Below the pieces are notes generated by a model. The model was not told the DNA's origin and did not search any database. It was given only the letters and a program-made list of their open reading frames with translations. From NCBI GenBank assembly GCA_963676165.1, contig OY781043.1:294364-358363 (forward strand): a stretch of DNA of 64,000 nucleotides. Direction: 5' to 3'. The translations under genes and the position numbers were made by a program. The stretch is from Bacteroidales bacterium (GTDB lineage: Bacteria > Bacteroidota > Bacteroidia > Bacteroidales > ML635J-15). Below, piece by piece: positions 223-55,893 of the stretch. Within the stretch, counting starts at the first letter, position 1. Every line of letters starts with the position of its first letter.

Positions 223-1323
223 ATGAAACAACTAATTGGGATCCTAATTATTCTCAGCTTTATAAGTTGTAAACAACAGACAGAGTGTTCTTATACAATA
301 CCTGTTGATAAAAATGACGGATTGAAAGTTTCTATGCTGGAAGAACACAATCTGGACAGAAAAACTTTTGAAAAAGTCAATAAAGATATTTGTAATGGAG
401 TTTACGGTAATTTGCATAGTGTTCTGGTTATCCACGAAAATGAACTTGTAATCGAACAATATTATAATGGCTGGGATGCGAATCAGATTCATTTTTTAGC
501 ATCCACAACCAAAAGTTTCAGTGCGATAATGATAGGTATAGCAATAGAACAAGGGAAGATTAAAGATGAAAATGAAAAAATGCTTAATTTCTTTCCAGAC
601 TATTATTCTCAATCACATGACACACTTAAAGAAAAAATAACAATTAAGCATCTATTGACTAATACATCTGGATTTGAATGGGACGAAGTTTCATTACCTG
701 TAGATGACCCTGATAATATGGGTTATGAAATGGATGAAGTTGACGATTTGTTTAAAGCTTCAATTGAGTTGCCTATGGATACTATGCCAGGACTTAAATA
801 TTCTTATAGTGGACCGAACAATATCATCATAGGAGAAATAATTAAAGCATCAACAGGGCAAAATGTGGCTGAATTTACTGAAGTAAATCTTTTTAAGCCA
901 CTTGGAATAAGTGATTATCAATGGTATTCAAAAAATGGAATTTATGATGTAGGAGGTGGACTAAAACTAAAATCAAGAGACATTGCGAAATACGGATTGC
1001 TACATTTGAATAAAGGGAAATGGAATGACAAACAAATTGTTTCGTCAGAATGGATGGACAAAATCTTTGAACCATACATTGAAATAAAACATCCTTTATA
1101 TAGTTGCTGCCAATGGCAAATGGTGAAAACGGAATACGGATTTAATTCTTGGTTTATTCCCGGTAATGGTGGACAAATTATAAATGTGGTACCTGACTTA
1201 GATTTGGTAATTGTAATAAATGCGGACAATAGAAAGATTCCAAAAGAAAAGCGAAAACCTTTGGAGTTTTTAATTAAAGATTTGACTAAAATACATCCGA
1301 AAATTAGAAACAACAATACCTGA
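223..1323 (+). CDS. Serine hydrolase, beta-lactamase/transpeptidase-like family, probable lipoprotein
   Basis: 366-aa ORF with a signal peptide plus Cys (ILSFISC). It has the SxxK motif STTKSF and a YSGPNN region typical of class C beta-lactamase-like hydrolases. Confidence 0.75.
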   Translation: MKQLIGILIILSFISCKQQTECSYTIPVDKNDGLKVSMLEEHNLDRKTFEKVNKDICNGVYGNLHSVLVIHENELVIEQYYNGWDANQIHFLASTTKSFSAIMIGIAIEQGKIKDENEKMLNFFPDYYSQSHDTLKEKITIKHLLTNTSGFEWDEVSLPVDDPDNMGYEMDEVDDLFKASIELPMDTMPGLKYSYSGPNNIIIGEIIKASTGQNVAEFTEVNLFKPLGISDYQWYSKNGIYDVGGGLKLKSRDIAKYGLLHLNKGKWNDKQIVSSEWMDKIFEPYIEIKHPLYSCCQWQMVKTEYGFNSWFIPGNGGQIINVVPDLDLVIVINADNRKIPKEKRKPLEFLIKDLTKIHPKIRNNNT

Positions 1324-1373
1324 CACGCGGTATACTTAATTGATGGGTGCCGTGCGTATTCGAGCCGTTAGCG
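1310..1373 (+). repeat. attC-like imperfect inverted repeat, site B (short form)
   Basis: ACAACAATACCTGACACGCGGTATAC overlaps the TGA at 1321-1323. The right arm is GCCGTGCGTATT-CGAGCC-GTTAGCG. AATAC/GTATT and CACGCGG/CCGTGCG pair, leaving CGAGCC unpaired. Confidence 0.55.
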
Positions 1374-1411
1374 GCAAGTTTGGAAGGCAATTGTAATAAA
1401 AAATAAGAATA

Positions 1412-2656
1412 ATGGGGAAAGTTATCATATTTATATTGTCAATTTTGAGCTTTTTGAATTTATCAGCTCAAAATAAAATAATAGGTTTTAAACCGGAGAT
1501 TGAACCATATATCAATTTCATCAAAGAACAACAAATTAGTCCAATAACTTACTTACTAGAAAAGTATAAAACCTATGATGTGATTGTATTTGGAGAGCGA
1601 GATCATAGAGATATAACGCAATATTATTTTTTGGAAAAACTGATAAATTCAGAAGATTTTTACAAACAGGTAAACATTATTTATACCGAGGTTGGATCTT
1701 CCAATTACAATGACACCCTTAATAAGATACTTCAGAATGATTTCTTAAGTGAAGCTGAAGTTGATCAAAAGCTTATAGAAATATATAGAGAAATCTCATA
1801 TCAAGCATTCTGGGATAAAAACAATTTTCTATATCTATGGAAAACAATTTATAAATTCAATCTATCACATCCAAATTATCCTATTACAATTAAAATGACT
1901 TCTCATCCATTTAATTGGCACGAGATATTAGATACGACCATTTGCAGAGTCAAAACACAAGAAGTTGAAGTCAATTATGATAAATCAATGGCTGAATACT
2001 TCCTGGAAAGTTTTGATGAAAACCAAAACAATAAAAGGAATAAAGCCTTTGTTATCATGAATTATCCTCATAGTTTACGAAAATGGACTTCAGATAAAGA
2101 AGTAACTTATTCCGATATGTTTGGTGCTTATGTCGAAAAAGTACTTGAAGGAAGAGTGTGTTACGTGATAGTAAATCCGTATCGAATTAATAGTTTACAG
2201 CCAGTTGCAAATGGAAAGTGGGATGCTGCATTCAAATATTGTGATTACAAAAATATTGGCTTTGATTTCAACAGTTCACCTTTTGGTAAAGATACGTTTG
2301 ATGTTTGGTCCGCTAATGGAATCCTGAGTTTTGAGAATCTCTATGATGGAATTATTTATGTTAGCCCAACATCACAATGTAAAAATATTATAGGAATTCC
2401 TGGCTTTATAGACAGGAAATTTGGAAAAGAATATTTGAGACGCATAAAATTACGTATGTATATTTATACAGGAAAAGAATATAAGACTAAGATTAAATGG
2501 GAAAGAGAGTCTTGCAATACGGTTAGAGTCAGAACGGTACAAGATGATAATGAATTTATGTATGGCGAAGATAAATCTAAATATTTTGATTCTATTGTAA
2601 ATAAGTGGTTAATATTTGAACAAAAACCAGCTAATAATAATGGCAATGGCCAATAG
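1412..2656 (+). CDS. Hypothetical secreted protein
   Basis: 414-aa ORF with an N-terminal signal peptide (FLNLSAQ). The motif VFGERDHRD is faintly reminiscent of the ChaN/erythromycin-esterase/Tiki superfamily. No firm family assignment. Confidence 0.55.
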   Translation: MGKVIIFILSILSFLNLSAQNKIIGFKPEIEPYINFIKEQQISPITYLLEKYKTYDVIVFGERDHRDITQYYFLEKLINSEDFYKQVNIIYTEVGSSNYNDTLNKILQNDFLSEAEVDQKLIEIYREISYQAFWDKNNFLYLWKTIYKFNLSHPNYPITIKMTSHPFNWHEILDTTICRVKTQEVEVNYDKSMAEYFLESFDENQNNKRNKAFVIMNYPHSLRKWTSDKEVTYSDMFGAYVEKVLEGRVCYVIVNPYRINSLQPVANGKWDAAFKYCDYKNIGFDFNSSPFGKDTFDVWSANGILSFENLYDGIIYVSPTSQCKNIIGIPGFIDRKFGKEYLRRIKLRMYIYTGKEYKTKIKWERESCNTVRVRTVQDDNEFMYGEDKSKYFDSIVNKWLIFEQKPANNNGNGQ

Positions 2657-2695
2657 AGTGTTAGAAGGAAAGATAAGCTTGGCTCCTTGTTGAAA
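2633..2695 (+). repeat. Weak attC-like repeat, site C
   Basis: AATAATAATGGCAATGGCCAATAG overlaps the stop at 2654-2656. The right side is AAGCTTGGCTCCTTGTTGAAA, with the same GTTGAAA core as site A. Arm complementarity is poor. Confidence 0.3.
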
Positions 2696-2750
2696 GGTCG
2701 CCAAATTTTAAAATCTTAATTTGGAGTGTAAAACTCCTAAAAGAGCCATT

Positions 2751-2800
2751 TGCAAATTAGCAAAGAAGATTTGATGAATGATCTGATTGAAAGTGAATAA
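2751..2800 (+). repeat. 50-bp exact copy of the 3' end of the TPR gene (matches 5929-5978)
   Basis: TGCAAATTAGCAAAGAAGATTTGATGAATGATCTGATTGAAAGTGAATAA occurs at both places. GTATCAAA follows both copies, after an extra 14 bp at the right copy. Confidence 0.9.
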
Positions 2801-3014
2801 GTATCAAATGTTAGAGTTTTGAGTGAATGTCTCAGGAAATATTATTGCTAATTCAAAGCGAAGACAGCAATCCAATATTGTTGCGCGGTTACAATATGAA
2901 GTTTGGTTCTTTCGAGCTAAATCTGAGCAATTACCTGGGCTTGACTTATGAATTCTAAGCCAAATTGTCTGCTTGTCGTGTGAGGATGATAGTTTTATGG
3001 TATAATGCTTCATT

Positions 3015-3160
3015 TTATCGAAATAAATTTGTACTTTTCGAAAAGAAACAAGCAAACTCGTTTATAAATGCTTACAAACAATTACAAATGCTTATTTCCG
3101 GATGGTAATCGATGGCTATTAAGTAGTTGTGAGAAGGGTGTGGTTATAAACGAGTTGTAA
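3015..3160 (+). repeat. Conserved ~150-bp non-coding element, copy A (hairpin CTCGTTTATAA...TTATAAACGAG ending GTTGTAA)
   Basis: It aligns by eye with 51813-51965. Shared parts are the leader TTATCGAAA..TTTCGA.AAGAAACAAGCA, 11-12 bp terminal inverted repeats, two internal AAATGCTTA(C) direct repeats, and a right end resembling the attC-like GTT core. Confidence 0.6.
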
Positions 3161-3204
3161 AACATTTGTCAGCCCATCTGCTAGTTATTGATAATTGAAA
3201 TATT

Positions 3205-3849
3205 ATGAGACTAAAACTTAATGGAAAAAAATATAGATATCGTCAGGAGTATTATAAGATTGAAGATGAACTGAAAGTAAAATTACCTTCTTATTCCATA
3301 AGTTATTCTGGCAAGGGTTTTTATAACGGTAAATGGCATCCATGTATTTTTCATTTCATAGATTCTTCAGGAAAAATGAAAATATTTATTTCTCCAGGAG
3401 GGGTATTTAAAGAAGGGATGTCTGACCTTGGCAAAGTGGATTCTCAGGGATTTGTAGATAAAATTGAGATTAAAGGTTTTAGGCGATTCCTTATTTTATT
3501 CTATGATTTTCTATTTCAAAAGAAACTTCAAATTTTAGGCATTATTGATAGAGCCAGCTTGATTAGGAAAAACTTAAGGTATATTTCCATTGCATTAATT
3601 GGTTCAATAATTTACTACCTGATTAATCACTTTTTGGATGGGTTCTTACAAGACTTGATAAATAAAAGTAACCTTGTTCAGTCTATAATAGTATTTCTCA
3701 GCTTATCAAGTATAGTTAATATATTCCACCCTTTTACTTTCCGTAAAGAGTTAAAGATTGAAGAAGTCGATGAACTGATTACAAAAAAGATACAGAAAGC
3801 TGAAAAAGAAGCAAAACGTAAGGAGGCAAATAAAAAATATTATCGATAA
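3205..3849 (+). CDS. Hypothetical membrane protein
   Basis: 214-aa ORF with hydrophobic segments (ISIALIGSIIYYLINHF, IIVFLSLSSIV) and a Lys-rich tail. Its stop lies 2 nt before the next ATG. Confidence 0.5.
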   Translation: MRLKLNGKKYRYRQEYYKIEDELKVKLPSYSISYSGKGFYNGKWHPCIFHFIDSSGKMKIFISPGGVFKEGMSDLGKVDSQGFVDKIEIKGFRRFLILFYDFLFQKKLQILGIIDRASLIRKNLRYISIALIGSIIYYLINHFLDGFLQDLINKSNLVQSIIVFLSLSSIVNIFHPFTFRKELKIEEVDELITKKIQKAEKEAKRKEANKKYYR

Positions 3850-6287: not shown

Positions 6288-6469
6288 GGATCAAGCAAAA
6301 AAGTTGGGGGACATTGAATGTTTATTATGACCTATATTCTCAAATATTTGGATGGGCTATTTTTTTTGACAGTTCAGCTTATCATTACCAAAATCTGCGC
6401 TAGTCTAGTACTAGCCGCTTTTCGTAAAACTATAGATAGGTATCTGGTAATAATCTAGATACGAGTTTT

Positions 6470-8179
6470 GGCGCCAGACTGTCTAATAACCTTAATAAGT
6501 TTGTTAATAAAGATTTTGCATGAATTCATGTTAAAGGAAAGGATATTAGTACCTTACAATATGAAATTTATAAAAGGAGAAAGTAGGTATTTAAAAAGTC
6601 TATTCCCAGTATCTTTAGAAGAAAGCATTGGTGAGGATAATGAAATTCGCATTATTGACGCATTTGTTGATAATTTAAACTTTTCTGAATTGGGATTTAG
6701 AACACATTACAGAGAAACAGGTCGTCCGGCCTATCACCCCAAAGATTTACTAAAGCTATATATTTATGGATATATGAATAGCATTAGATCATCACGTCGG
6801 TTAGAAAAAGAATGCAAACGAAATATTGAATTGATGTGGCTTTTAAATAATTTGTCACCAGATCATAATACTATATCGAATTTCAGAAAGGACAATTCCA
6901 AATCAATAAAGAAAGTTTTCAGAGAGACGGTTAAGTTATCTCAGTATTTTGAACTTATTGGAGGCGAATTGGTTGCAGGAGACAGCACAAAGCTTAGAGC
7001 CCAGAATAGCAAAAAGAATAATTTCAATCAGAAAAAGATAGAGCGACATCAAGAATATATCGAAAGAAAAATAGAAGAATACGAACAAGAATTAAGTAAT
7101 AACGATGGTGATAATCAGGAAATATTAAAAAAGATTGAGAACAAAAAAGAACTTAAATCAAAGTACGACCGCATGTCTGAGGAATTAACTAGAGATAAAG
7201 AAACACAAATATCAACTAGTGATCCAGATAGTCGAAATATGACTCTTCGAAATAATATATCGGAAGTCGCTTACTGTGTTCAAAGTATGGTTGACGCTAA
7301 GCACAACCTGCTGCTGGACTTTATTGTGACGAACAAAGGTGATAAAAACGCAATGGGAAATATGTTGCAACGTACTAAGTCTATTTTACGTAATACTACT
7401 TTTACTGCTTTATTTGATACTGGATACCATTCAGGGAGAGAGCTAAAAAAAGCAGATGATTTAGGCATCAATGTTCTGGTAAATGTACCTTCTACACCAC
7501 ATGCAAACCAAATTCCTGACCCAAATTATTGTATAAGCAATTTTGTATATGACAAAGAAAATGACACATATACATGCCCAGAAGGTGAAATTTTAATAAC
7601 TAATGGGAATTGGTGTAACGCAAGAAATAAGAATGGAGAAGTTTATTACAGATTTAAAAACTATGGTACCGTTAAATGCAAAGAATGTCCCGTTAGGTCT
7701 AAGTGTACAATAAATAAAAAAGGTCGTAGAATAAAAAGAAGTGAATATGCCGAGAACATACAGTCTAACACGAAACGAATGATTGATTTAAAAGATAAAT
7801 ACCGGCAGCGGAAAAGCATAGTAGAACATCCATTTGGAACAATGAAACGACAATGGGGATACGACCACATAATAACGAAAAAATACATTAAACGAGCAAC
7901 AGCAGATGTTGGGTTGATTTTTTCATGCTATAATATCAAGCGATTAATAAATATTCTGGGAATTGATGCACTAATCGAATCTTTCAATAAGGGAAAGAGG
8001 TTTTGTGCTCAAATATTAACCAGATATGGAATCAAATTAAGACTTTTAAGACCTCTAAATTATTTACACAAACAAGGCTGCACAAAATCAATCCCTAATT
8101 ATTACTACTTATTTAGCAACTATAGGCTTATGAGGGCATGAATTTTTAGAAAATCTTAATTATCAGACAGTCTGGCGCC
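6470..8179 (+). mobile_element. IS1182-family insertion sequence
   Basis: The terminal inverted repeats GGCGCCAGACTGTCTAATAA (6470-) and TTATCAGACAGTCTGGCGCC (-8179) have one mismatch. They enclose a single DDE transposase ORF in 1710 bp. Confidence 0.8.
6561..8141 (+). CDS. IS1182-family (IS5/IS4-like DDE) transposase
   Basis: MKFIKGESRY...RIIDAFVD...TGRPAYHPKDLLKLYIYGY...SSRRLEKEC is the typical IS1182 N-terminus, and HPFGTMKRQWGY the typical C-terminal motif. The upstream TTG-started extension is probably not translated. Confidence 0.8.
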   Translation: MKFIKGESRYLKSLFPVSLEESIGEDNEIRIIDAFVDNLNFSELGFRTHYRETGRPAYHPKDLLKLYIYGYMNSIRSSRRLEKECKRNIELMWLLNNLSPDHNTISNFRKDNSKSIKKVFRETVKLSQYFELIGGELVAGDSTKLRAQNSKKNNFNQKKIERHQEYIERKIEEYEQELSNNDGDNQEILKKIENKKELKSKYDRMSEELTRDKETQISTSDPDSRNMTLRNNISEVAYCVQSMVDAKHNLLLDFIVTNKGDKNAMGNMLQRTKSILRNTTFTALFDTGYHSGRELKKADDLGINVLVNVPSTPHANQIPDPNYCISNFVYDKENDTYTCPEGEILITNGNWCNARNKNGEVYYRFKNYGTVKCKECPVRSKCTINKKGRRIKRSEYAENIQSNTKRMIDLKDKYRQRKSIVEHPFGTMKRQWGYDHIITKKYIKRATADVGLIFSCYNIKRLINILGIDALIESFNKGKRFCAQILTRYGIKLRLLRPLNYLHKQGCTKSIPNYYYLFSNYRLMRA

Positions 8180-8426
8180 TTCGCGTATTTTCTGTGATTT
8201 ATTGAGATGTGTTTGGAGTTTTTGAGCCGCGCATGCGAGCCTGTTTGCCATACTTGGCCGCTAAACAAAACGAGCTTTCTGCGGGTCACGGAAAACATAT
8301 CCAATAAATAAGAAAATTCGGGTCAGCGCCTGATTTTCTTTGCTAGCTTTCTTTCATCAGGAAAGAAAGCGAAGTTGAAAAATGTTAGGTATTAGTGGTT
8401 TGCCCCACAGGAATATTGCTTGATCC

Positions 8427-8840
8427 GCAACTTCTCGGTTAAAAGAATACATCGTTAAAGGATTTACCATGAACGATGATTTACTCAAACAGGCTGGTGG
8501 AGGTAATTACTTTGACGAATTACTAGCTCGTATCAGGGATATTCATTCATCAGAAAAAGTGTTTTGGAGAAAAGTTCTTGACATATATGCTACAAGTATT
8601 GATTATGACCCATCATTGGAGATGTCTGTAATGTTCTTCAAAACAGCTCAAAATAAAATGCACTGGGCAGCGCATGGGCACACAGCAGCTGAGATAATTT
8701 ATAATCGAGTGGACTCAGGGAAACCAAATATAGGACTGAGTAGCTTTAAAGGAAAGAATCCAACTAAACAGGAAACAGAGATTGTTAAAAAAAAGCGCCA
8801 ATTCCCCTTTCTGAAAATCAACGCTTTTTTGCTAATGTAA
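8427..8840 (+). pseudogene. rhuM-family gene, central fragment (3'-truncated)
   Basis: (S)RLKEYIVKGFTMNDDLLKQAGGGNYFDELLARIRDIHSSEKVFWRKVLDIYATSIDYD is RhuM-like. Similarity ends near 8795 (EIVKK), where a hairpin AAAAGCG...CGCTTTT follows. Confidence 0.7.
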
Positions 8841-8929
8841 AAGTATTCATAAATTGTGAAATACCAAAGAACAGGTCTGTCGCATTTTAAAAAATCGTAA
8901 CTTTATACCCTCAAAAAAATGCCCGACTT

Positions 8930-11314
8930 ATGACCAATATGGATGATTATCAGTTTAAAGGAAAACGCGTTTTAATTCGTGTCGATTTCAATGTCCCTTT
9001 GAATGAAAATGGTGAAATAACCGACGATACACGAATTGTAACAGCCGTGCCTACAATTCAAAAAGTGCTTACTGAAGGCGGTTCTGTCATCATCATGACA
9101 CATCTTGGCCGTCCGAAAGGACAATTTAATGAGGCTTTAAGTGTAAAACGCATCTCTGATTATGTGTCCGGAATGCTAGGTCGTGAAATTATTGTTGCGG
9201 AAGATTGCATAGGCAAGGAAACGGAAAAACTGGCAGCATCACTCAAAAAAGGACAGGTGCTCATGTTGGAAAATCTTCGTTTTTATAACGAGGAAACTGC
9301 CGGCGATGAGGAATTTGCGAAAAAATTGGCCAAACTTGGTGATGCTTATATCAATAATGCCTTTGGAACTGCCCATCGTGCGCACGCATCCACCTACACC
9401 ATCGCGAAATTTTTCCCTTACGACAAAATGTTGGGATATTTGGTGGAGTCTGAAGTGAAAAACATTGATAAACTCCTGAAAAAAGCCAAATCACCCTTTA
9501 CTGCAATCATTGGAGGAGCAAAAATTTCCACAAAAATTGACATCATCGAAGCCTTGATGGAGAAAGTGGATAATTTAATCATTGGTGGGGGTATTGTCTT
9601 TACCTTTCTGAAAGCCAAAGGACTAGAAGTTGGAAATTCTTTGGTTGATGATGATTATATTGAGGTGGCAAAACGTATTCTTGACACAGCTCGTGAACGA
9701 AATGTCAAAGTGTATCTCTCAGAAGATGTGTTGATTGCAGATAATTTTAGCAATGAAGCCCAGATAGAGCATGTTCCTGTTTCTGCCATCAAACCCGGTT
9801 GGATGGGAATGGATATTGGTGTAAAATCTGCTGAATTGTTTGAGCAGGTCATTGAAAATTCTGAAAGCATTTTGTGGAATGGTCCTATGGGCGTCTTTGA
9901 AATGCCTCACTTTGCTTATGGTACGCTGAAAACAGGTTTGTCTGTGGCACGTGCTACCGATAAAGGTTCTTACTCTTTGGTTGGTGGAGGTGATTCCATT
10001 GCTGCCTTAAAAAAGTATGCATTGGAACATAAAATTTCTTATGTCTCAACTGCAGGTGGAGCCTTACTGGAGTATATTGAAGGGAAAAAATTGCCAAGTT
10101 TACGCGCAATTAGGGAAACTCACAGCATGGATGATTACGATTTCCGTGGAAAACGTGCTCTTGTTCGTGTGGATTTCAATGTCCCTATGGATGAGAATTT
10201 CAAGATTACCGATGATACACGTATCCGTACTGCGATTCCAACGCTTCGGAAAATTCTTGCAGAAGGAGGATCTATCATTCTTTTAACTCACATTGGCCGT
10301 CCGAAAGGTCAGCGAATGGATAAATATTCTGTTCGACATATTATTCCTTATGTTTCGGATTTGCTTGGTACCGAAGTGCAATTTGCAGATCGTTGTCGTG
10401 GCGATAATACTGAGAAAATTGCAAAACAGCTTAAGCCTGGCGAAGTGCTGATGCTTGAGAACCTCCGCTTTACCAATGAAGAAATTGAGGGAAGTGAAAG
10501 TTTTGCTGAAGAATTAAGTCGTCTTGGGGATGTGTACATCAATAATGCCTTTGGTACAGCGCATCGTGCACATGCTTCAACATATACCATTGCAAAATTC
10601 TTCCCTGAAGATAAAATGCTTGGATATCTGATTGAAAATGAAATTAACAACATCAATCGCATATTGTACAAAGCTGAGCGTCCGTTTACCACTGTCATTG
10701 GGGGATCAAAAATCTCAACTAAAATCAATATCATTCGTGCTTTGATGGATAAAGCCGATAATGTGATTATTGGTGGCGGGATTGCCTTTACCTTTATCAA
10801 AGCCATGGGTGGAAATATTGGAGATTCTCTCGTTGAGGAGGATTCATTGGATGTGGCACGTGAAATACTTGATTATGCTGCACGTAGCTCAGTGAAATTG
10901 TATCTTCCAACAGATTGTTTGATTGCCGATGCATTTGAGAAAAACCCAAAAATTCGTCATGCCAAAGCAAACAATATTCCTGACGGATGGAGGGGTTTAG
11001 ATATCGGTGTGAAAACAGCGGAAACCTATACGAAAGTGATAGAAAACTCCAACGCTATTCTTTGGAATGGTCCGATGGGAGTATTTGAAATGCCGTATTT
11101 TAGTAACGGAACAATCAAAATATCTCTGGCAACAGCGCGTGCAACCGATATGGGAGCGTTTTCACTTGTTGGTGGTGGAGATTCTATTGCAGCACTAAAA
11201 CGCTATGGTATGAGTCATAAAATTTCGTATATTTCAACTGCGGGAGGTGCTTTGCTTGAGTACATTGAAGGAAAAGAATTACCAAGTTTAAAAGCAATAC
11301 GCACAAAGATATAA
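8930..11314 (+). CDS. pgk: Tandem-fused phosphoglycerate kinase (two complete PGK modules: residues 1-399 and 400-794)
   Basis: Both halves carry VRVDFNVP, TH(L/I)GRPKG, ENLRF, NNAFGTAHRAHAS, GG(A/S)KISTKI, WNGPMGVFE, GGGDS and STAGGA. There is no stop between IRETHS and the MDDYDF at 10127. Confidence 0.85.
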   Translation: MTNMDDYQFKGKRVLIRVDFNVPLNENGEITDDTRIVTAVPTIQKVLTEGGSVIIMTHLGRPKGQFNEALSVKRISDYVSGMLGREIIVAEDCIGKETEKLAASLKKGQVLMLENLRFYNEETAGDEEFAKKLAKLGDAYINNAFGTAHRAHASTYTIAKFFPYDKMLGYLVESEVKNIDKLLKKAKSPFTAIIGGAKISTKIDIIEALMEKVDNLIIGGGIVFTFLKAKGLEVGNSLVDDDYIEVAKRILDTARERNVKVYLSEDVLIADNFSNEAQIEHVPVSAIKPGWMGMDIGVKSAELFEQVIENSESILWNGPMGVFEMPHFAYGTLKTGLSVARATDKGSYSLVGGGDSIAALKKYALEHKISYVSTAGGALLEYIEGKKLPSLRAIRETHSMDDYDFRGKRALVRVDFNVPMDENFKITDDTRIRTAIPTLRKILAEGGSIILLTHIGRPKGQRMDKYSVRHIIPYVSDLLGTEVQFADRCRGDNTEKIAKQLKPGEVLMLENLRFTNEEIEGSESFAEELSRLGDVYINNAFGTAHRAHASTYTIAKFFPEDKMLGYLIENEINNINRILYKAERPFTTVIGGSKISTKINIIRALMDKADNVIIGGGIAFTFIKAMGGNIGDSLVEEDSLDVAREILDYAARSSVKLYLPTDCLIADAFEKNPKIRHAKANNIPDGWRGLDIGVKTAETYTKVIENSNAILWNGPMGVFEMPYFSNGTIKISLATARATDMGAFSLVGGGDSIAALKRYGMSHKISYISTAGGALLEYIEGKELPSLKAIRTKI

Positions 11315-11334
11315 TGCAAATAAACTAAGCTATT

Positions 11335-12633
11335 ATGGAAATTAATTTGCCGAAAATTCAAGATGCTGACCTGAATGGAAAAGTTGTCCTTGTTCGTGTC
11401 GATCACAATGTGGTGAAAAAGGGTGTGATTCACGATCCTTACCGTATTGACGCAACGATTGGAACCCTGTATCATATCAATGCAAAGGGCGGGAAAATCA
11501 TTTTAATGACACACGTGGGAAGACCGCGTGACAAAAAGGACAATAGCATTCATATTAGTGATGATACTTCGGTAAAACCCATTGTCGATTACTTAAACAA
11601 CAAATTGCATATCAATATTCAGATACCGGAATTTGTACCGCATGGCGATCAAGGATATTTGGGCTTGGAGACTTCCATTAACCACATGATTCGTGAACTT
11701 CGAAATGGCGATATCGATGGAATTTACTTACCAAATACACGTTGGTTTGCCGGTGAAGAAGCAGATGGCGATGTGTCAGATCGTTTTGGATTGCAGCTAG
11801 CTGGTTTAGCAGATGTGTTTGTCAACGATGCATTTGGATCATGGCAACCTCACACTTCAACGGTGAAAGTCAACGATTATTTGCCTTCTTATGCAGGATA
11901 TCTCATGCAAAAGGAAATTGCTAATTTAGAGCGTATTTATAAAGCTGAGCATCCTTTTGTGGCAGTGGTTGCAGGGAGTAAAATGGACACGAAAATTGAG
12001 TCCCTTTATGCGCTTTTAAAAATTGCTGATAAATTGGTTTTGGGCGGTGTCATTTACAATGCCTATTTGTGCGCAAAATATGGAATTCGAATCAAAGGAG
12101 TTGATGAGGGGAACTTGGCACTTGCAAAAGAGTTTGTGAAATATGCTGAGGATTATTCTGATAAGATTTTGGAGCTGGAATACATCATTGAATCTGATAT
12201 TTTGGAAGGCAAAGAAAATGGAAAATACAGAATGCATCACATTCAGGACTTAAAAGAGGATCAGGAATTGAACTATGTGTTGGATGTTGCTCCAGAGTCC
12301 TTTCATCAAGAAAATGTTTGTCAGGTATTTAAAAATGCTAAGACAATTTTTATCAATGCAGTTATGGGTTTTACTCCGCATTTTAATGATGGAACCATTG
12401 CATTGGATGAGCTAACAGATTCAAATTTGGATGCTGTGAAGTTATACGGTGGTGGAGATACCATGCAAGAGTTAAAACGTTTACTCCCAGGTTTGTATAT
12501 TGTCGCTTTGGACAATCCAAAATACTACATTTTCACCGGTGGTGGTGCAGTGCTAAAAGCCATACAAGAAGGAACCTATGCAGGCTTAGAGCCCGTAAAG
12601 GCTTTGGTTGAAAACCAGAAAAAGAATCTGTAA
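11335..12633 (+). CDS. Divergent phosphoglycerate-kinase-like paralogue
   Basis: It keeps VRVDHNV, THVGRP, NTRW, VNDAFGS, AGSKMDTKI, GGGDT and TGGGA. It has SWQPHTS in place of AHRAHAS and INAVMGFTP in place of WNGPMGVFE. It starts 20 nt after the fused pgk. Confidence 0.7.
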   Translation: MEINLPKIQDADLNGKVVLVRVDHNVVKKGVIHDPYRIDATIGTLYHINAKGGKIILMTHVGRPRDKKDNSIHISDDTSVKPIVDYLNNKLHINIQIPEFVPHGDQGYLGLETSINHMIRELRNGDIDGIYLPNTRWFAGEEADGDVSDRFGLQLAGLADVFVNDAFGSWQPHTSTVKVNDYLPSYAGYLMQKEIANLERIYKAEHPFVAVVAGSKMDTKIESLYALLKIADKLVLGGVIYNAYLCAKYGIRIKGVDEGNLALAKEFVKYAEDYSDKILELEYIIESDILEGKENGKYRMHHIQDLKEDQELNYVLDVAPESFHQENVCQVFKNAKTIFINAVMGFTPHFNDGTIALDELTDSNLDAVKLYGGGDTMQELKRLLPGLYIVALDNPKYYIFTGGGAVLKAIQEGTYAGLEPVKALVENQKKNL

Positions 12634-12691: not shown

Positions 12692-13246
12692 TTGACATGC
12701 ATATGATGCATTTCGGCGTTGTCACCATAACATCTACGGTGATATTACTAGTAATTTTTTGCGCCAGCTTAGTACTTTCTGACAATTGTAAAACTACAGA
12801 TAAATATTTGAGATTACCCAAAATGGGAGGTTGCCTTCTATTCTTAGTGGGGAAACAGCAAGGCTTTATTTTTGAAAATACCTTTGTACATGACCTAAAT
12901 AATCTATTTCAAGTATTGAATTATAACAAATTGCTCAAGCCCTGTAGGGGCTTAATTTTTGTAACCCCGGACAAGAATTTATTCGTAGTCCGGGGATGAC
13001 AAACATAGGTGAATGTGTTTTTGGCGTATATCTTTGCAATAACCGAGGGACGAAGGTATGCAAAGATTATGACAAAAAGTTTTGTCATGTAATAACGGGA
13101 AATACTTTAAATTAAACATCAGTTTTCATCCTGAAAACTAAAATTAATTCCATTGATTCAATATCAGGATAGAAAGCGGAGTTAATAAGCCCTATACATA
13201 TTGGTTTATCCAACACCAATGGTGTTTCACGCCAAAAGCTACAGCT

Positions 13247-53262: not shown

Positions 53263-54347
53263 GTGTGCCAAGAAGCAGTACATCGGCATTAAACAGTACT
53301 GCATGCTTTAATTGAGATGGTGGAATCCGTCAGTTGACGGATGATCCCCCCGAAGTCGATTTCCAGGAAAGGGCTTCAACCCACCTAAAGATGCTGTGTT
53401 GAAGAAGCATGGTATTGAGCGTTTAGGAAAATACAGTCCATGAGACTGTCAGGAATGTGTACAGGAGATGAACGAAAGAGAACCATTGATGAAGAGTCGA
53501 GAAAGTGGAATCCTCAGTCAAAATCCGTATAAGTATGAATGCGGTTATAAGTGCAACGGTTACCTGTTTATTGGTTGCACGATTGGCGTCATTTAGATGG
53601 CATGAACTGTACACAGGCTCAGTTAAGGAACTTGGGAATCTGATCGGGAATGTAAAGGGAAGCACAATAAAATCAATCTAGAGGCGAAATACCAAAAACC
53701 CGAATCAGAGACGGACTAACCCGTAGTAGTGATGAATTCCTGTAATGGGAATAGAGCAAAGGGGTTAGGTTATACAGAGTCATAACATTTAACAACTTGT
53801 AAGAGGATGAATTTATGGAATGAGACAAAATCAGTACCGATAAGTCGCCAAATGATTTGGCAGGCTTATAAGAAAGAGAAAGCCAACAAAGGAAGTGCAG
53901 GTGTCGATTCAGTAAGCATGGAGATATTCGATGCAAACAGAAGTAAACACTTGTATAAACTTTGGAATCGAATGATATCGGGGAGTTATTTCCCTCCACT
54001 AGTCAAAGAAGTTGAGATTCTTAAAAAAGACGGCAAAGTCCACAAGTTAGGTATTCTAACAATAGCAAATTTCGTGGATACGAACTGTCAAGAGTATTTT
54101 ATCTGCTACGATGTCGACTGGTACGCTGGGCACGAAAACGGTATAAACGCTACAGAATAAGTTTGACAAGAGTCTGTAAATTGTTATACAGGGTTAGGAA
54201 GCAATATCCTTATCTGTTTTATCACTGGCAATTAGGATTTTCAAATTAAAAGTAGCAGATTTGTATAACAAGAGCCGTATGACGGGAGACTATCACGTAC
54301 GGTTCTGTGAGAGGCTTAGGGTGAAACTCCCTTTACCTATTCGACAC
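53263..54347 (+). mobile_element. Group II intron, ORF-deleted derivative (bacterial class C-like)
   Basis: The 5' end is GTGTG. The RT N-terminus (53807-54070) reads SAGVDSVSMEIF...YFPPLVKEVEILKKDGKVHKLGI. The IEP C-terminal remnant is RWARKRYKRYR...YPYLFYHWQLGFSN* (about 54125-54250). Domain V is GAGCCGTATGACGGGAGACTATCACGTACGGTTC (54272-54305). A domain VI-like stem follows. The proposed 3' end ...CGACAC is inferred by alignment of the flanks to site H. Confidence 0.75.
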
Positions 54348-54395
54348 TTGTCCGTTGTAGTTAATGCAAAAGAGAGTTTCGTTCAAAATGAAACT

Positions 54396-54977
54396 ATGAA
54401 AAGATTAGTAGAAAATATTGAGACTTATATTAGCTTAAATCAGGAAGAATTGTCTTTGCTTGAAAAATTTTTGACAAAAAAAACTTATAATAAAAAGACT
54501 ACCTTTTTTGAAGAAGGAAAAATTGCTAATGAAATATATTTTGTTTCTAAAGGTTGTGTTCGCCTGTTTTATAATGTAGACGGTAACGATAAAACTGCCT
54601 TCTTTTATACAGAAGGACAATTTATATGTGCAGGAGAAAGCTATACTTTCAATACACCGGCCATAGAAAACTATCAAGCAATTGAAAATACTGACTTGAT
54701 AATATTCACAAAGTCAGACATTGAAAAGTTAACGCTACTGTTACCAAGAATAGAGGTAATTGCACGAGTTGCTGTGGAGAATGAATTAATAACTAGTCAA
54801 AAAGTGATTGCTTCATTTGTGACAAAATCGCCGGAAGAACGTTACCTTGACTTGTTAAATACTCAAAAAGAACTTTTCCAAAGAGTTCCACAACAGTATA
54901 TTGCATCGTTTCTTGGAGTTTCGCCGGAAACACTAAGTAGAATCAAAACAAGAGTTTACAAAAAAGAACGTTCTTGA
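54396..54977 (+). CDS. Crp/Fnr-family transcriptional regulator
   Basis: It has a cNMP-binding fold (FFEEGKIANEIYFVSKGCVRLFY) and a C-terminal HTH (QQYIASFLGVSPETLSRIK). The listed ORF start at 54261 lies inside the intron. Confidence 0.8.
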   Translation: MKRLVENIETYISLNQEELSLLEKFLTKKTYNKKTTFFEEGKIANEIYFVSKGCVRLFYNVDGNDKTAFFYTEGQFICAGESYTFNTPAIENYQAIENTDLIIFTKSDIEKLTLLLPRIEVIARVAVENELITSQKVIASFVTKSPEERYLDLLNTQKELFQRVPQQYIASFLGVSPETLSRIKTRVYKKERS

Positions 54978-55032: not shown

Positions 55033-55893
55033 ATGATGAAAAAAGTATTAGTAGCAGGAGCAACGGGATATTTAGGTCAGTACTTAGTTAAAGAGCTAAA
55101 GAAAAGAGGATTTTGGGTAAGAGTTTTAATTCGAAAAGAAGCTCAAAAGGAAAAATTTGAAACAGTTGACGATTTTTTCATTGGAGAAGTAACTAAACCT
55201 GTAAGTATTAAGGGGGTAACGAAAGATATTAATTGGGTCTTTTCAACGATTGGTATTACTCGACAAAAAGATGGAATGACATATATGGATGTTGATTATC
55301 AAGGCAATTCCAACTTATTAAAAGAAGCATTAATAGATAAAGTTGAATCATTTGAATATATATCAGCAATAAACGGAGAGAAACTTAGACATCTCAAAAT
55401 TTTTGAAGCTAAAGAGAAATTTGTAGATGAATTGAAAGATTCTGGAATTAATTATTGTGTTTTACGTCCAAATGGATTCTTTTCCGATATGAAAGACTTT
55501 CTAAATATGGCAAAAGCTGGTCGAGTATTTTTATTTGGAGCAGGAGTGTTGAAATTGAATCCAATTCACGGAGAGGATTTGGCAAAAGTATGCGTTGATA
55601 AAATTATTGAAGGTGTTAAAGAGGAGACGGCAGGAGGGATTGACATTTTAACTCAAAATGAATTAGCCGAATTAGCACTAAAAGCGTGGAATAAACCAAT
55701 TAAAATAAGTCATCTTCCAGATTGGACAAGGAGACTAACAATTTGGTTATTACGAACATTTACATCATCTAGAACTTATGGACCGATTGAGTTCTTTTTA
55801 ACTGCGATGGCATTTGATAATATTGCAAACCAATATGGAACGAATCGTCTTGAAGATTTTTTTAAATTAGAAGTGAAAAGAATGAAGGAATAA
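55033..55893 (+). CDS. NAD(P)H-binding atypical SDR / NmrA-like oxidoreductase
   Basis: VLVAGATGYLGQYLVKEL is a Rossmann motif. 286 aa. Confidence 0.75.
   Translation: MMKKVLVAGATGYLGQYLVKELKKRGFWVRVLIRKEAQKEKFETVDDFFIGEVTKPVSIKGVTKDINWVFSTIGITRQKDGMTYMDVDYQGNSNLLKEALIDKVESFEYISAINGEKLRHLKIFEAKEKFVDELKDSGINYCVLRPNGFFSDMKDFLNMAKAGRVFLFGAGVLKLNPIHGEDLAKVCVDKIIEGVKEETAGGIDILTQNELAELALKAWNKPIKISHLPDWTRRLTIWLLRTFTSSRTYGPIEFFLTAMAFDNIANQYGTNRLEDFFKLEVKRMKE

Follow-up and report, generated by a model that had tools for sequence, protein, structure and literature searches.

The window analysed here, a stretch of 64,000 nucleotides from a Bacteroidales bacterium (NCBI GenBank assembly GCA_963676165.1, contig OY781043.1, positions 294,364 to 358,363 of the forward strand), carries a gene in which two complete phosphoglycerate kinases (PGKs) are joined head-to-tail within one reading frame. 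The fusion gene occupies 8930..11314 on the + strand; it starts with ATG and runs unbroken through 794 codons to its stop. Twenty base pairs after this stop, on the same strand, begins P3, a divergent PGK-family gene of 432 amino acids (aa; 11335..12633), and the window holds no further PGK copy. The usual state of PGK is one ~45-kDa module per chain, from which the 794-aa fusion protein with its two modules departs.

Results

The Pfam profile of PGK, PF00162, matches the fusion protein twice, with 981.9 bits in total, the best stretch aligning residues 4-386 with profile positions 1-379 of 379, and both modules match the PGK profile over its full length. Together with the list of open reading frames (ORFs), the sequence itself and the full-length ~794-aa homologues described below, these two domains define the gene. 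Module 1 (residues 1-399; 8930..10126, + strand) was delimited as a complete PGK by a table of active-site residues, by sequence matches in the PDB and by superposition of a structure model, and module 2 (residues 400-794; 10127..11311, + strand), likewise complete, by BLASTP against module 1, by the residue table and by a count of invariant columns. The two align without a gap, 256 of 392 positions being identical (65%) and 82% positive. The original prediction, which was made from the letters alone, had read two complete PGKs in this 794-aa frame, about two-thirds identical to each other, and had listed a set of motifs for both; all of this agrees with our analysis, except that module 1 reads IRVDFNVP and not VRVDFNVP. 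Its description of the boundary, ...AIRETHS-MDDYDF... with an ATG at 10127 and without a stop codon, is also correct.

The linkerless junction AIRETHS/MDDYDF (residues 393-405; 10106..10144, + strand) was characterised by its conserved spacing, by the offset between the modules, by a survey of codons and by the confidence of the structure model. In every junction that was parsed, from clades A-G of the family, exactly 40 residues separate TAGGA of module 1 from VDFNVP of module 2, and these junctions share the pattern ...LP[SG]I[KR]AI[KR]xx[FYL][ST]-[VIM]D[DR]Y[DN]F.... In 42 of 45 genes the two GGGD motifs lie 396 residues apart, and in three genes the distance is 395 or 397. Module 1 ends in a C-terminal helix that continues directly into the first strand of module 2. 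Module 2 opens with ATT, GTT, ATC, ATA, CTT or GTA in 36 of 41 species, and with ATG or GTG in the remaining five. Because the junction codon is a non-start codon in so many species, independent initiation of module 2 is not conserved, and the window ATG at 10127 is incidental.

Homologues were sought among ~5.8 billion proteins, with clustering at 90% identity, and in a scan of GTDB with one genome per species. Homologues of 791-868 aa, mostly 794-795 aa, make up at least 120 clusters, drawn from four assembly sources (NCBI, JGI, ENA and Logan). Their alignments cover 98-100% of the query with identities of 58-92%, those of ~794 aa reaching down to 63%. Among the GTDB species representatives, 45 have an intact two-module gene, one (L040) has a gene with an in-frame stop and six have fragments at contig ends; all these carriers are uncultured metagenome-assembled genomes (MAGs) titled Bacteroidales, Bacteroidota, Marinilabiliales, Bacteroidaceae or Acetofilamentum. 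The fusion is genuine and lineage-wide in uncultured Bacteroidales, and is not peculiar to the window genome; the view of the original prediction that it reflects neither a recent assembly duplication nor a lost stop is borne out by this recurrence, and the related genomes that it proposed to search do contain the same fusion. Next after the fusion family come PGKs with one module, from Rikenellaceae, Marinifilaceae and Crocinitomicaceae, which are 50-60% identical. When 1.84 billion representatives clustered at 50% identity were searched with HMMER, the Bacteroidales fusion family collapsed to one representative, P0034.

The exceptional gene of L040 (PKTB01000004.1, Marinilabiliales BM703; 7992..10385) is interrupted by one in-frame stop, close to residue 380 in module 1, and the split frames 7992..9131 and 9135..10385 share one reading frame. 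The gene could be a pseudogene or a natural 'un-fusion', or the stop could be due to a sequencing error.

Databases name the fusion only 'phosphoglycerate kinase', at times trimmed to one module. In L002 (JAQIBY010000040.1), for example, NCBI calls only the 400-aa module 2 (P0243 = MDA3910341.1) from an internal Met, with the 794-aa frame intact. The original prediction had considered that the fusion might be widespread and already annotated in this lineage; it is widespread in uncultured Bacteroidales, but its annotation is only generic and sometimes covers one module. The NCBIfam model NF010569, which describes the bifunctional PGK/triose-phosphate isomerase (TIM), scores 987 bits on the fusion protein against a cut-off of 883 bits, with only profile positions 5-393 of 645 matched, and no TIM Pfam domain is found in the fusion protein, which is accordingly not a bifunctional PGK/TIM. 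The cut-off is passed because the PGK part of the model matches twice, so that the model could mis-name the fusion as bifunctional PGK/TIM.

For the active sites we use what we take to be the numbering of human PGK1, anchored on motifs. Both window modules have the equivalents of D23, N25, R38, H62, R65, R122 and R170 of the 3-phosphoglycerate (3-PG) site, and both have the nucleotide and catalytic residues K215, K219, N336 and E343, the GGGD motif (D374) and the glycine-rich loops. Human R38, K215, K219 and D374 correspond to R35, K198, K202 and D355 of module 1 and to R431, K594, K598 and D751 of module 2. Across 47 species the 3-PG site is kept in 44-47 of 47 module 1s and in 47 of 47 module 2s, and the core catalytic and ligand set in 44-47 and 46-47 of 47, respectively. 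The nucleotide/catalytic site is invariant in module 2 throughout the family, while in module 1 it varies only in clade B and in rare singletons. Module 2 is the more constrained half, with 96 columns invariant across the family against 80 in module 1. Both halves are under purifying selection: in 12 of 13 close pairs, both modules have a ratio of nonsynonymous to synonymous substitution rates (dN/dS, Nei-Gojobori) of 0.017-0.094, the outlier being module 1 of the pair L007-L010, which carries an indel. By their residues, both modules should be catalytically competent for 1,3-bisphosphoglycerate + ADP <-> 3-phosphoglycerate + ATP.

An AlphaFold2 model of the full fusion protein, the prediction of which had been recommended from the outset, was built with 56 homologues and has a mean predicted local distance difference test score (pLDDT) of 90.3, with no segment below 50; the lowest block at the junction is at ~70, and there is no disordered linker. 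Both modules have the two-lobed hinge-bending fold of PGK and each superposes on solved PGKs: Foldseek against the PDB returned 1php, 3q3v, 1v6s and 2ie8 with target-normalised template modelling (TM) scores of 0.92-0.96 and root-mean-square deviations of 1.4-2.1 Å. Only single PGKs were among these PDB matches, with query-normalised TM scores of at most 0.48, none of them covering more than half of the model, and no solved chain with a two-PGK architecture was found there. In sequence, module 1 matches 7zy7 with 406 bits and 1php with 393 bits.

The history of the two halves was examined with neighbour-joining (NJ) bootstrap trees of 200 replicates and by comparison with the 26 nearest single-module PGKs. 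At ten alignment columns a residue present in at least 85% of both modules occurs in at most 15% of these 26 single PGKs; one of the ten is the replacement, in both modules, of the universal STGGGA by STAGGA. That both modules share derived residues which the nearest single PGKs lack fits a duplication within the lineage, and on this ground horizontal acquisition of the second PGK is rejected. Identity between module 1 and module 2 of the same protein differs by clade, being 54-62% in clade B, 62-65% in clade A, to which the window belongs, 73-77% in clade C and 79% in clade H. In four-taxon site patterns, those uniting the two modules of the same protein outnumber the orthology type 2-6 fold in most clade pairs (for example, 27.8 versus 6.7 for A-H and 30.5 versus 5.0 for F-H); A-B alone favours the orthology pattern, by 15.6 to 7.3. 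Support for a monophyletic group of all module 1s, or of one of all module 2s, is 0%, whereas modules 1 and 2 of the same clade group together at 87% in C, 84% in F and 99% in H, and module 1 of A groups with module 1 of B at 73%. A simple model of ancient paralogues, with orthologous clades of module 1 and module 2, is ruled out by the 0% bootstrap and the site patterns. The original prediction had left a choice between ancient paralogues and horizontal acquisition, and trees, site patterns and derived residues fit neither; they point to in-lineage tandem duplication and concerted evolution.

The fusion gene of L034 (CAZRWZ010000001.1, 7980..10406) gives a more local view. In its last ~60-80 codons the two modules are 92-97% identical in protein, and the synonymous third-position identity of this 3' tract is 91-100%, against a baseline of 45-55% elsewhere; the tract looks like the product of a recent intragenic gene conversion. 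No recent conversion tract was found in the window gene, whose modules agree overall at 51% of synonymous third positions, close to the 45-55% of most relatives. A search of the whole family for module-specific residues, as a sign of specialisation, found none at 80% or more in both halves. The best reading of these sequences is a single in-lineage fusion followed by episodic intragenic gene conversion, since the site patterns, the bootstraps and the L034 tract combine with a single type of junction.

The adjacent gene P3, overlooked in the original prediction, whose account of the locus is otherwise accurate for the fusion gene, is a member of the PGK family by its profile match (PF00162, 272.9 bits; residues 8-411 against profile positions 1-377 of 379). 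It is ~30% identical to either fusion module, and its best PDB sequence matches do not exceed 149 bits. P3 keeps D23, N25, R38, H62, R65, R122, K215, K219, N336 and D374. It lacks the canonical set of substrate and nucleotide residues formed by R170, E343 and the adenine-pocket residues G238, G312 and V341: all 22 of 22 family members have R170Q, G238V, G337A, P338V and V341F and no residue at E343, H169W is found in 21 of 22, and G312 is replaced by V in 18 of 22 and by I or F in the rest. One arm of the phosphate-binding patch is lost and the adenosine pocket is remodelled, and we think that P3 should be filed as 'PGK-like' with its specificity unassigned, and not among the orthodox PGKs. 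Purifying selection acts on the P3 family, with dN/dS of 0.02-0.1. Relatives of P3 at 72-76% identity are found in many Bacteroidota MAGs and also in Desulfobacterales/Desulfobulbaceae MAGs, and this cross-phylum identity suggests inter-phylum transfer and a non-canonical specificity. The neighbourhood of the P3 gene in one Desulfobacterales genome (L082) held no informative neighbours.

Linkage of P3 to the fusion gene differs by clade. In clade A it lies 17-28 bp downstream of the fusion at 6 of 6 loci, measured stop-to-stop; in clade C, 9 loci have it within ~100-365 bp by the same measure and two more have it ~4.7 kb away; in clade B it is found at 4 loci on the opposite strand, ~3.7 kb away; and none was found near the fusion in the sampled loci of clades E-H. 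The order of genes in clade C (L001, L083) is a holB-like gene on the opposite strand, PGK-PGK, P3, a PGM/PMM-family mutase and, again on the opposite strand, a sulfotransferase; in L001, genes for a fibrobacter-type secreted protein and a caspase-like peptidase C14 and one unknown gene are inserted between the fusion and P3.

In the window the spacer between the two genes (11315..11334, + strand) is 20 bp long and contains no terminator-like hairpin. A GC-rich terminator-like hairpin with a T-run, found by consensus match and matched on both strands, is located at 12937..12953, ~300 bp past P3 and before a convergent gene for a TonB-dependent receptor; it is likely to be the end of the operon, and the fusion gene and P3 are probably co-transcribed in the window's clade. 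Alignment of the upstream regions revealed a block at 8822..8929 (+ strand) that is conserved with L002 and L004 and partly with L003. Inside this block, the element TAACTTTA at 8898-8905 (+ strand) resembles what we take to be the Bacteroidetes -7 promoter element, TAnnTTTG, and may act as the promoter of the fusion gene. A scan with the sigma-70 consensus, which does not cover Bacteroidota promoters, gave 19 hits, no excess over the 16.3 ± 4.3 in shuffled sequence.

Only in the last ~108 bp ahead of the start codon of the fusion gene does conservation with close relatives set in again, and the upstream neighbourhood has therefore been rearranged in the window genome. An insertion sequence (IS) transposase gene with DUF772 and DDE_Tnp_1 domains (6468..8141, + strand) stands directly upstream of the PGK operon, with a truncated RhuM-family fragment (8469..8840, + strand) between it and the fusion gene. 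Downstream of P3 follow genes for the TonB-dependent receptor, an SprB/type IX secretion system (T9SS) cargo protein, LspA, IleRS and TamB, an ordinary Bacteroidota chromosome. Far from these genes, the window also contains group II intron RNA domains at 53336..53454 and 54270..54345 (+ strand; RF01999, 83 bits, and RF00029, 62 bits), with the neighbouring ORFs 54261..54977 and 55033..55893.

Discussion

We propose that the fusion protein is most likely a covalent single-chain tandem of two working PGKs, which arose by one linkerless in-frame fusion and was later homogenised by conversion. A Bacteroidales ancestor would have duplicated pgk in tandem, and the two copies would have been joined in frame once, without a linker. 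In PGKs the N-terminal, 3-phosphoglycerate-binding domain carries both chain ends, with the C-terminal helix packing back onto this N-domain. Because of this position of the chain ends, which we assume to hold in the fusion protein as well, a linkerless join would tether two N-domains side by side and the two would be expected to pack against each other, while each hinge and nucleotide domain would stay free. The protein would be expressed as a single chain, and each module would still run the PGK reaction, so that both sites would be active. Purifying selection maintains both halves, one of which is now and then overwritten by the other via intragenic gene conversion, and conversion keeps the halves near-equivalent in most lineages rather than specialised. 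The advantage of such an arrangement might lie in stability or in the doubled number of sites per chain, if dimeric archaeal PGKs and the 100-kDa hexokinases are taken as a guide; coupling of the sites is another candidate.

The simplest objection, that two adjacent ordinary pgk genes have lost a stop codon through a base-call error or that an assembly was collapsed or duplicated, has practically no probability left. It draws on the general expectation of a ~400-aa monomer for PGK, and perhaps on the in-frame stop inside module 1 of the relative L040, but the same unbroken ~794-aa frame recurs in more than a hundred clusters and in dozens of species representatives that many groups assembled independently, the junction has a conserved geometry and no relic of an intergenic spacer or a stop codon, and the modules are only 65% identical. 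For the family as a whole, the many independent assemblies rule out an assembly artefact. We also regard it as quite improbable, though not to that degree, that one gene yields two proteins, module 2 being translated also or mainly alone from the internal ATG at 10127. There is a parallel in Thermotoga, where a separate PGK and a fused PGK-TIM both arise from one locus; moreover, the window ATG coincides with the first codon of module 2, and in a close relative the NCBI pipeline called a 400-aa protein, consisting of module 2 only, that starts at an internal Met. Such internal initiation cannot be the conserved mode, however, when the equivalent codon is a non-start in 36 of 41 species, and no promoter or terminator-like feature stands above background at the junction. 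Somewhat less improbable is that several independent duplication-fusions occurred in subclades, instead of one fusion followed by gene conversion. This would account for the same-clade groups of modules 1 and 2 with bootstraps of 84-99% and for the range of intra-protein identity from 54% to 79% by clade, and PGK-PGK fusion has indeed arisen separately elsewhere, with another junction (the P0256 family, see below). Against it, all subclades have one linkerless junction pattern and the 396-aa offset, which would be unlikely from separate events; the near-identity in L034 is localised to a 3' tract and not uniform, as is the signature of conversion; and clades A and B have differentiated modules in common (15.6 versus 7.3 in site patterns, A_m1+B_m1 at 73%).

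Several of our own observations weigh against the proposal of a homogenised tandem of two working PGKs. In the NJ trees, a group of all fused modules to the exclusion of single PGKs has weak bootstrap support, at 24%. The predicted TM score (pTM) of the AlphaFold2 model is 0.62, and hence the relative placement of the modules is not confidently predicted. In clade B the nucleotide site of module 1 has changed, with N336D in 16/47, A214D in 14/47 and G312A in 11/47, and clade B module 1 is also further from single PGKs (51% versus 59% mean identity); because of these changes and this distance, the halves are not equivalent everywhere. The changes feed the idea of a subfunctionalised tandem in which one module is catalytic and the other regulatory or a pseudo-enzyme, as in hexokinase I or eukaryotic phosphofructokinase. 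The heavier constraint on module 2 (96 versus 80 invariant columns), the drift of clade B module 1 at nucleotide-binding positions, T393S among them besides N336D, A214D and G312A, and a dN that is higher in module 1 than in module 2 in some pairs (L018-L027, L016-L050) all favour this idea, which we nevertheless consider unlikely: the window's clade keeps every scored catalytic and ligand residue in both modules and its dN/dS is equally low in both halves, no position in the whole family is module-specific at 80% or more in both modules, and recurrent gene conversion between the halves opposes stable specialisation.

With the tandem of two working PGKs as the favoured reading, each module is the full-length equivalent of a canonical monomeric bacterial PGK (EC 2.7.2.3; PDB 1PHP of Geobacillus stearothermophilus and 3Q3V of Campylobacter jejuni) and also of 7ZY7 from the Chlamydomonas chloroplast, with 393-406 bits to 1php/7zy7 and every substrate, nucleotide and catalytic residue in place; what differs is that two units share one 794-aa chain and are joined without a linker. 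The mammalian 100-kDa hexokinases and eukaryotic phosphofructokinase also arose when a complete glycolytic kinase was duplicated in tandem and fused in frame; both halves are active in hexokinase II, and the N-half is regulatory in hexokinase I. The hexokinase II-like state, in which both halves have catalytic residues, would be the best functional analogy to the fusion, though folds and lineages are unrelated and the PGK halves have been repeatedly homogenised, with no fixed division of labour.

Among PGKs themselves, more than one unit per particle is also found in the archaeal enzymes of Pyrococcus woesei, Methanothermus fervidus and Sulfolobus solfataricus, which are homodimers or tetramers and for which oligomerisation was suggested to be stabilising, according to the sections available of the most comprehensive recent review, from 2020 (PMC7729029). 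These are non-covalent assemblies of ~46-kDa subunits in thermophiles, whereas the fusion is a covalent tandem in a bacterial lineage represented by MAGs only, with no indication of thermophily. In the PGK-TIM of Thermotoga maritima and T. neapolitana (fus gene, NF010569), PGK is likewise extended C-terminally by a glycolytic enzyme domain, as those sections describe (PMC7729029), but the second part of our fusion is PGK and not triose-phosphate isomerase. The forms listed there are monomers, archaeal dimers and tetramers, PGK-TIM and PAS-, CNB- and MYCBPAP-fused PGKs, and the same sections make no mention of a PGK-PGK tandem (PMC7729029). Our literature search, which covered few subscription journals and in which absence is not proof, turned up no account of either a bacterial PGK-PGK fusion or a paralogue of the P3 type. 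The fusion is an undescribed architecture of a textbook monomeric glycolytic enzyme, with no new chemistry shown.

A second bacterial PGK-PGK fusion emerged from our searches, the P0256/P0403 family (P0403-P0408) of ~798 aa, with 7 clusters and modules ~72% identical to each other. It differs from the window protein in its junction (...LPGVTALTV-LPFRTLRDL...), keeps STGGGA and is 41% identical, and its origin is therefore independent. Plant entries with two PGKs are 865-909 aa long with modules 83-84% identical, and may be merged models of tandem genes; two-PGK transcripts of marine eukaryotes have real linkers between the domains. This handful of other multi-PGK proteins all fall outside the Bacteroidales family. 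PGK-PGK fusion is therefore rare but has arisen more than once, the Bacteroidales family being by far the largest. In an uncultured planctomycete (L081, CAYMFV010000164.1, Planctomycetales; 340..3396), a stop-to-stop ORF of 1019 aa has a PGK domain in its C-terminal ~390 residues only and may be an N-terminally extended PGK or an over-long frame.

A bolder scenario takes P3 into account. The locus would then encode a three-module PGK system and not mere redundancy, the tandem acting cooperatively or with half-of-sites reactivity through communicating N-domains, and P3 acting on a new acyl-phosphate substrate or with a non-adenine donor such as pyrophosphate. We hold this to be unlikely as a whole. 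The part concerning P3 builds on the combination of retained phosphoryl-transfer residues with R170Q and a refilled adenosine pocket (G238V, G312V, V341F, E343 absent), and a pyrophosphate donor would fit the pyrophosphate-based economy of anaerobic Bacteroidales. If this were true, the conservation of P3 between Bacteroidota and Desulfobacterales (72-76%) would mark a horizontally spread, undescribed activity of central metabolism. For new enzymology, the P3 family, with its remodelled active site across phyla, may be a more important lead than the fusion.

Irrespective of P3, the double PGK calls for some caution in annotation, considering that the NCBI pipeline PGAP trimmed one copy to 400 aa and that the PGK/TIM hidden Markov model passes its cut-off for the wrong reason. 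The fusion is a lineage-wide feature and not a singular event, and as such it offers a clean bacterial case of concerted evolution within a single gene. The covalent double PGK is, at the same time, a natural system for asking whether two hinge-bending kinases tethered by their N-domains act independently or cooperatively.

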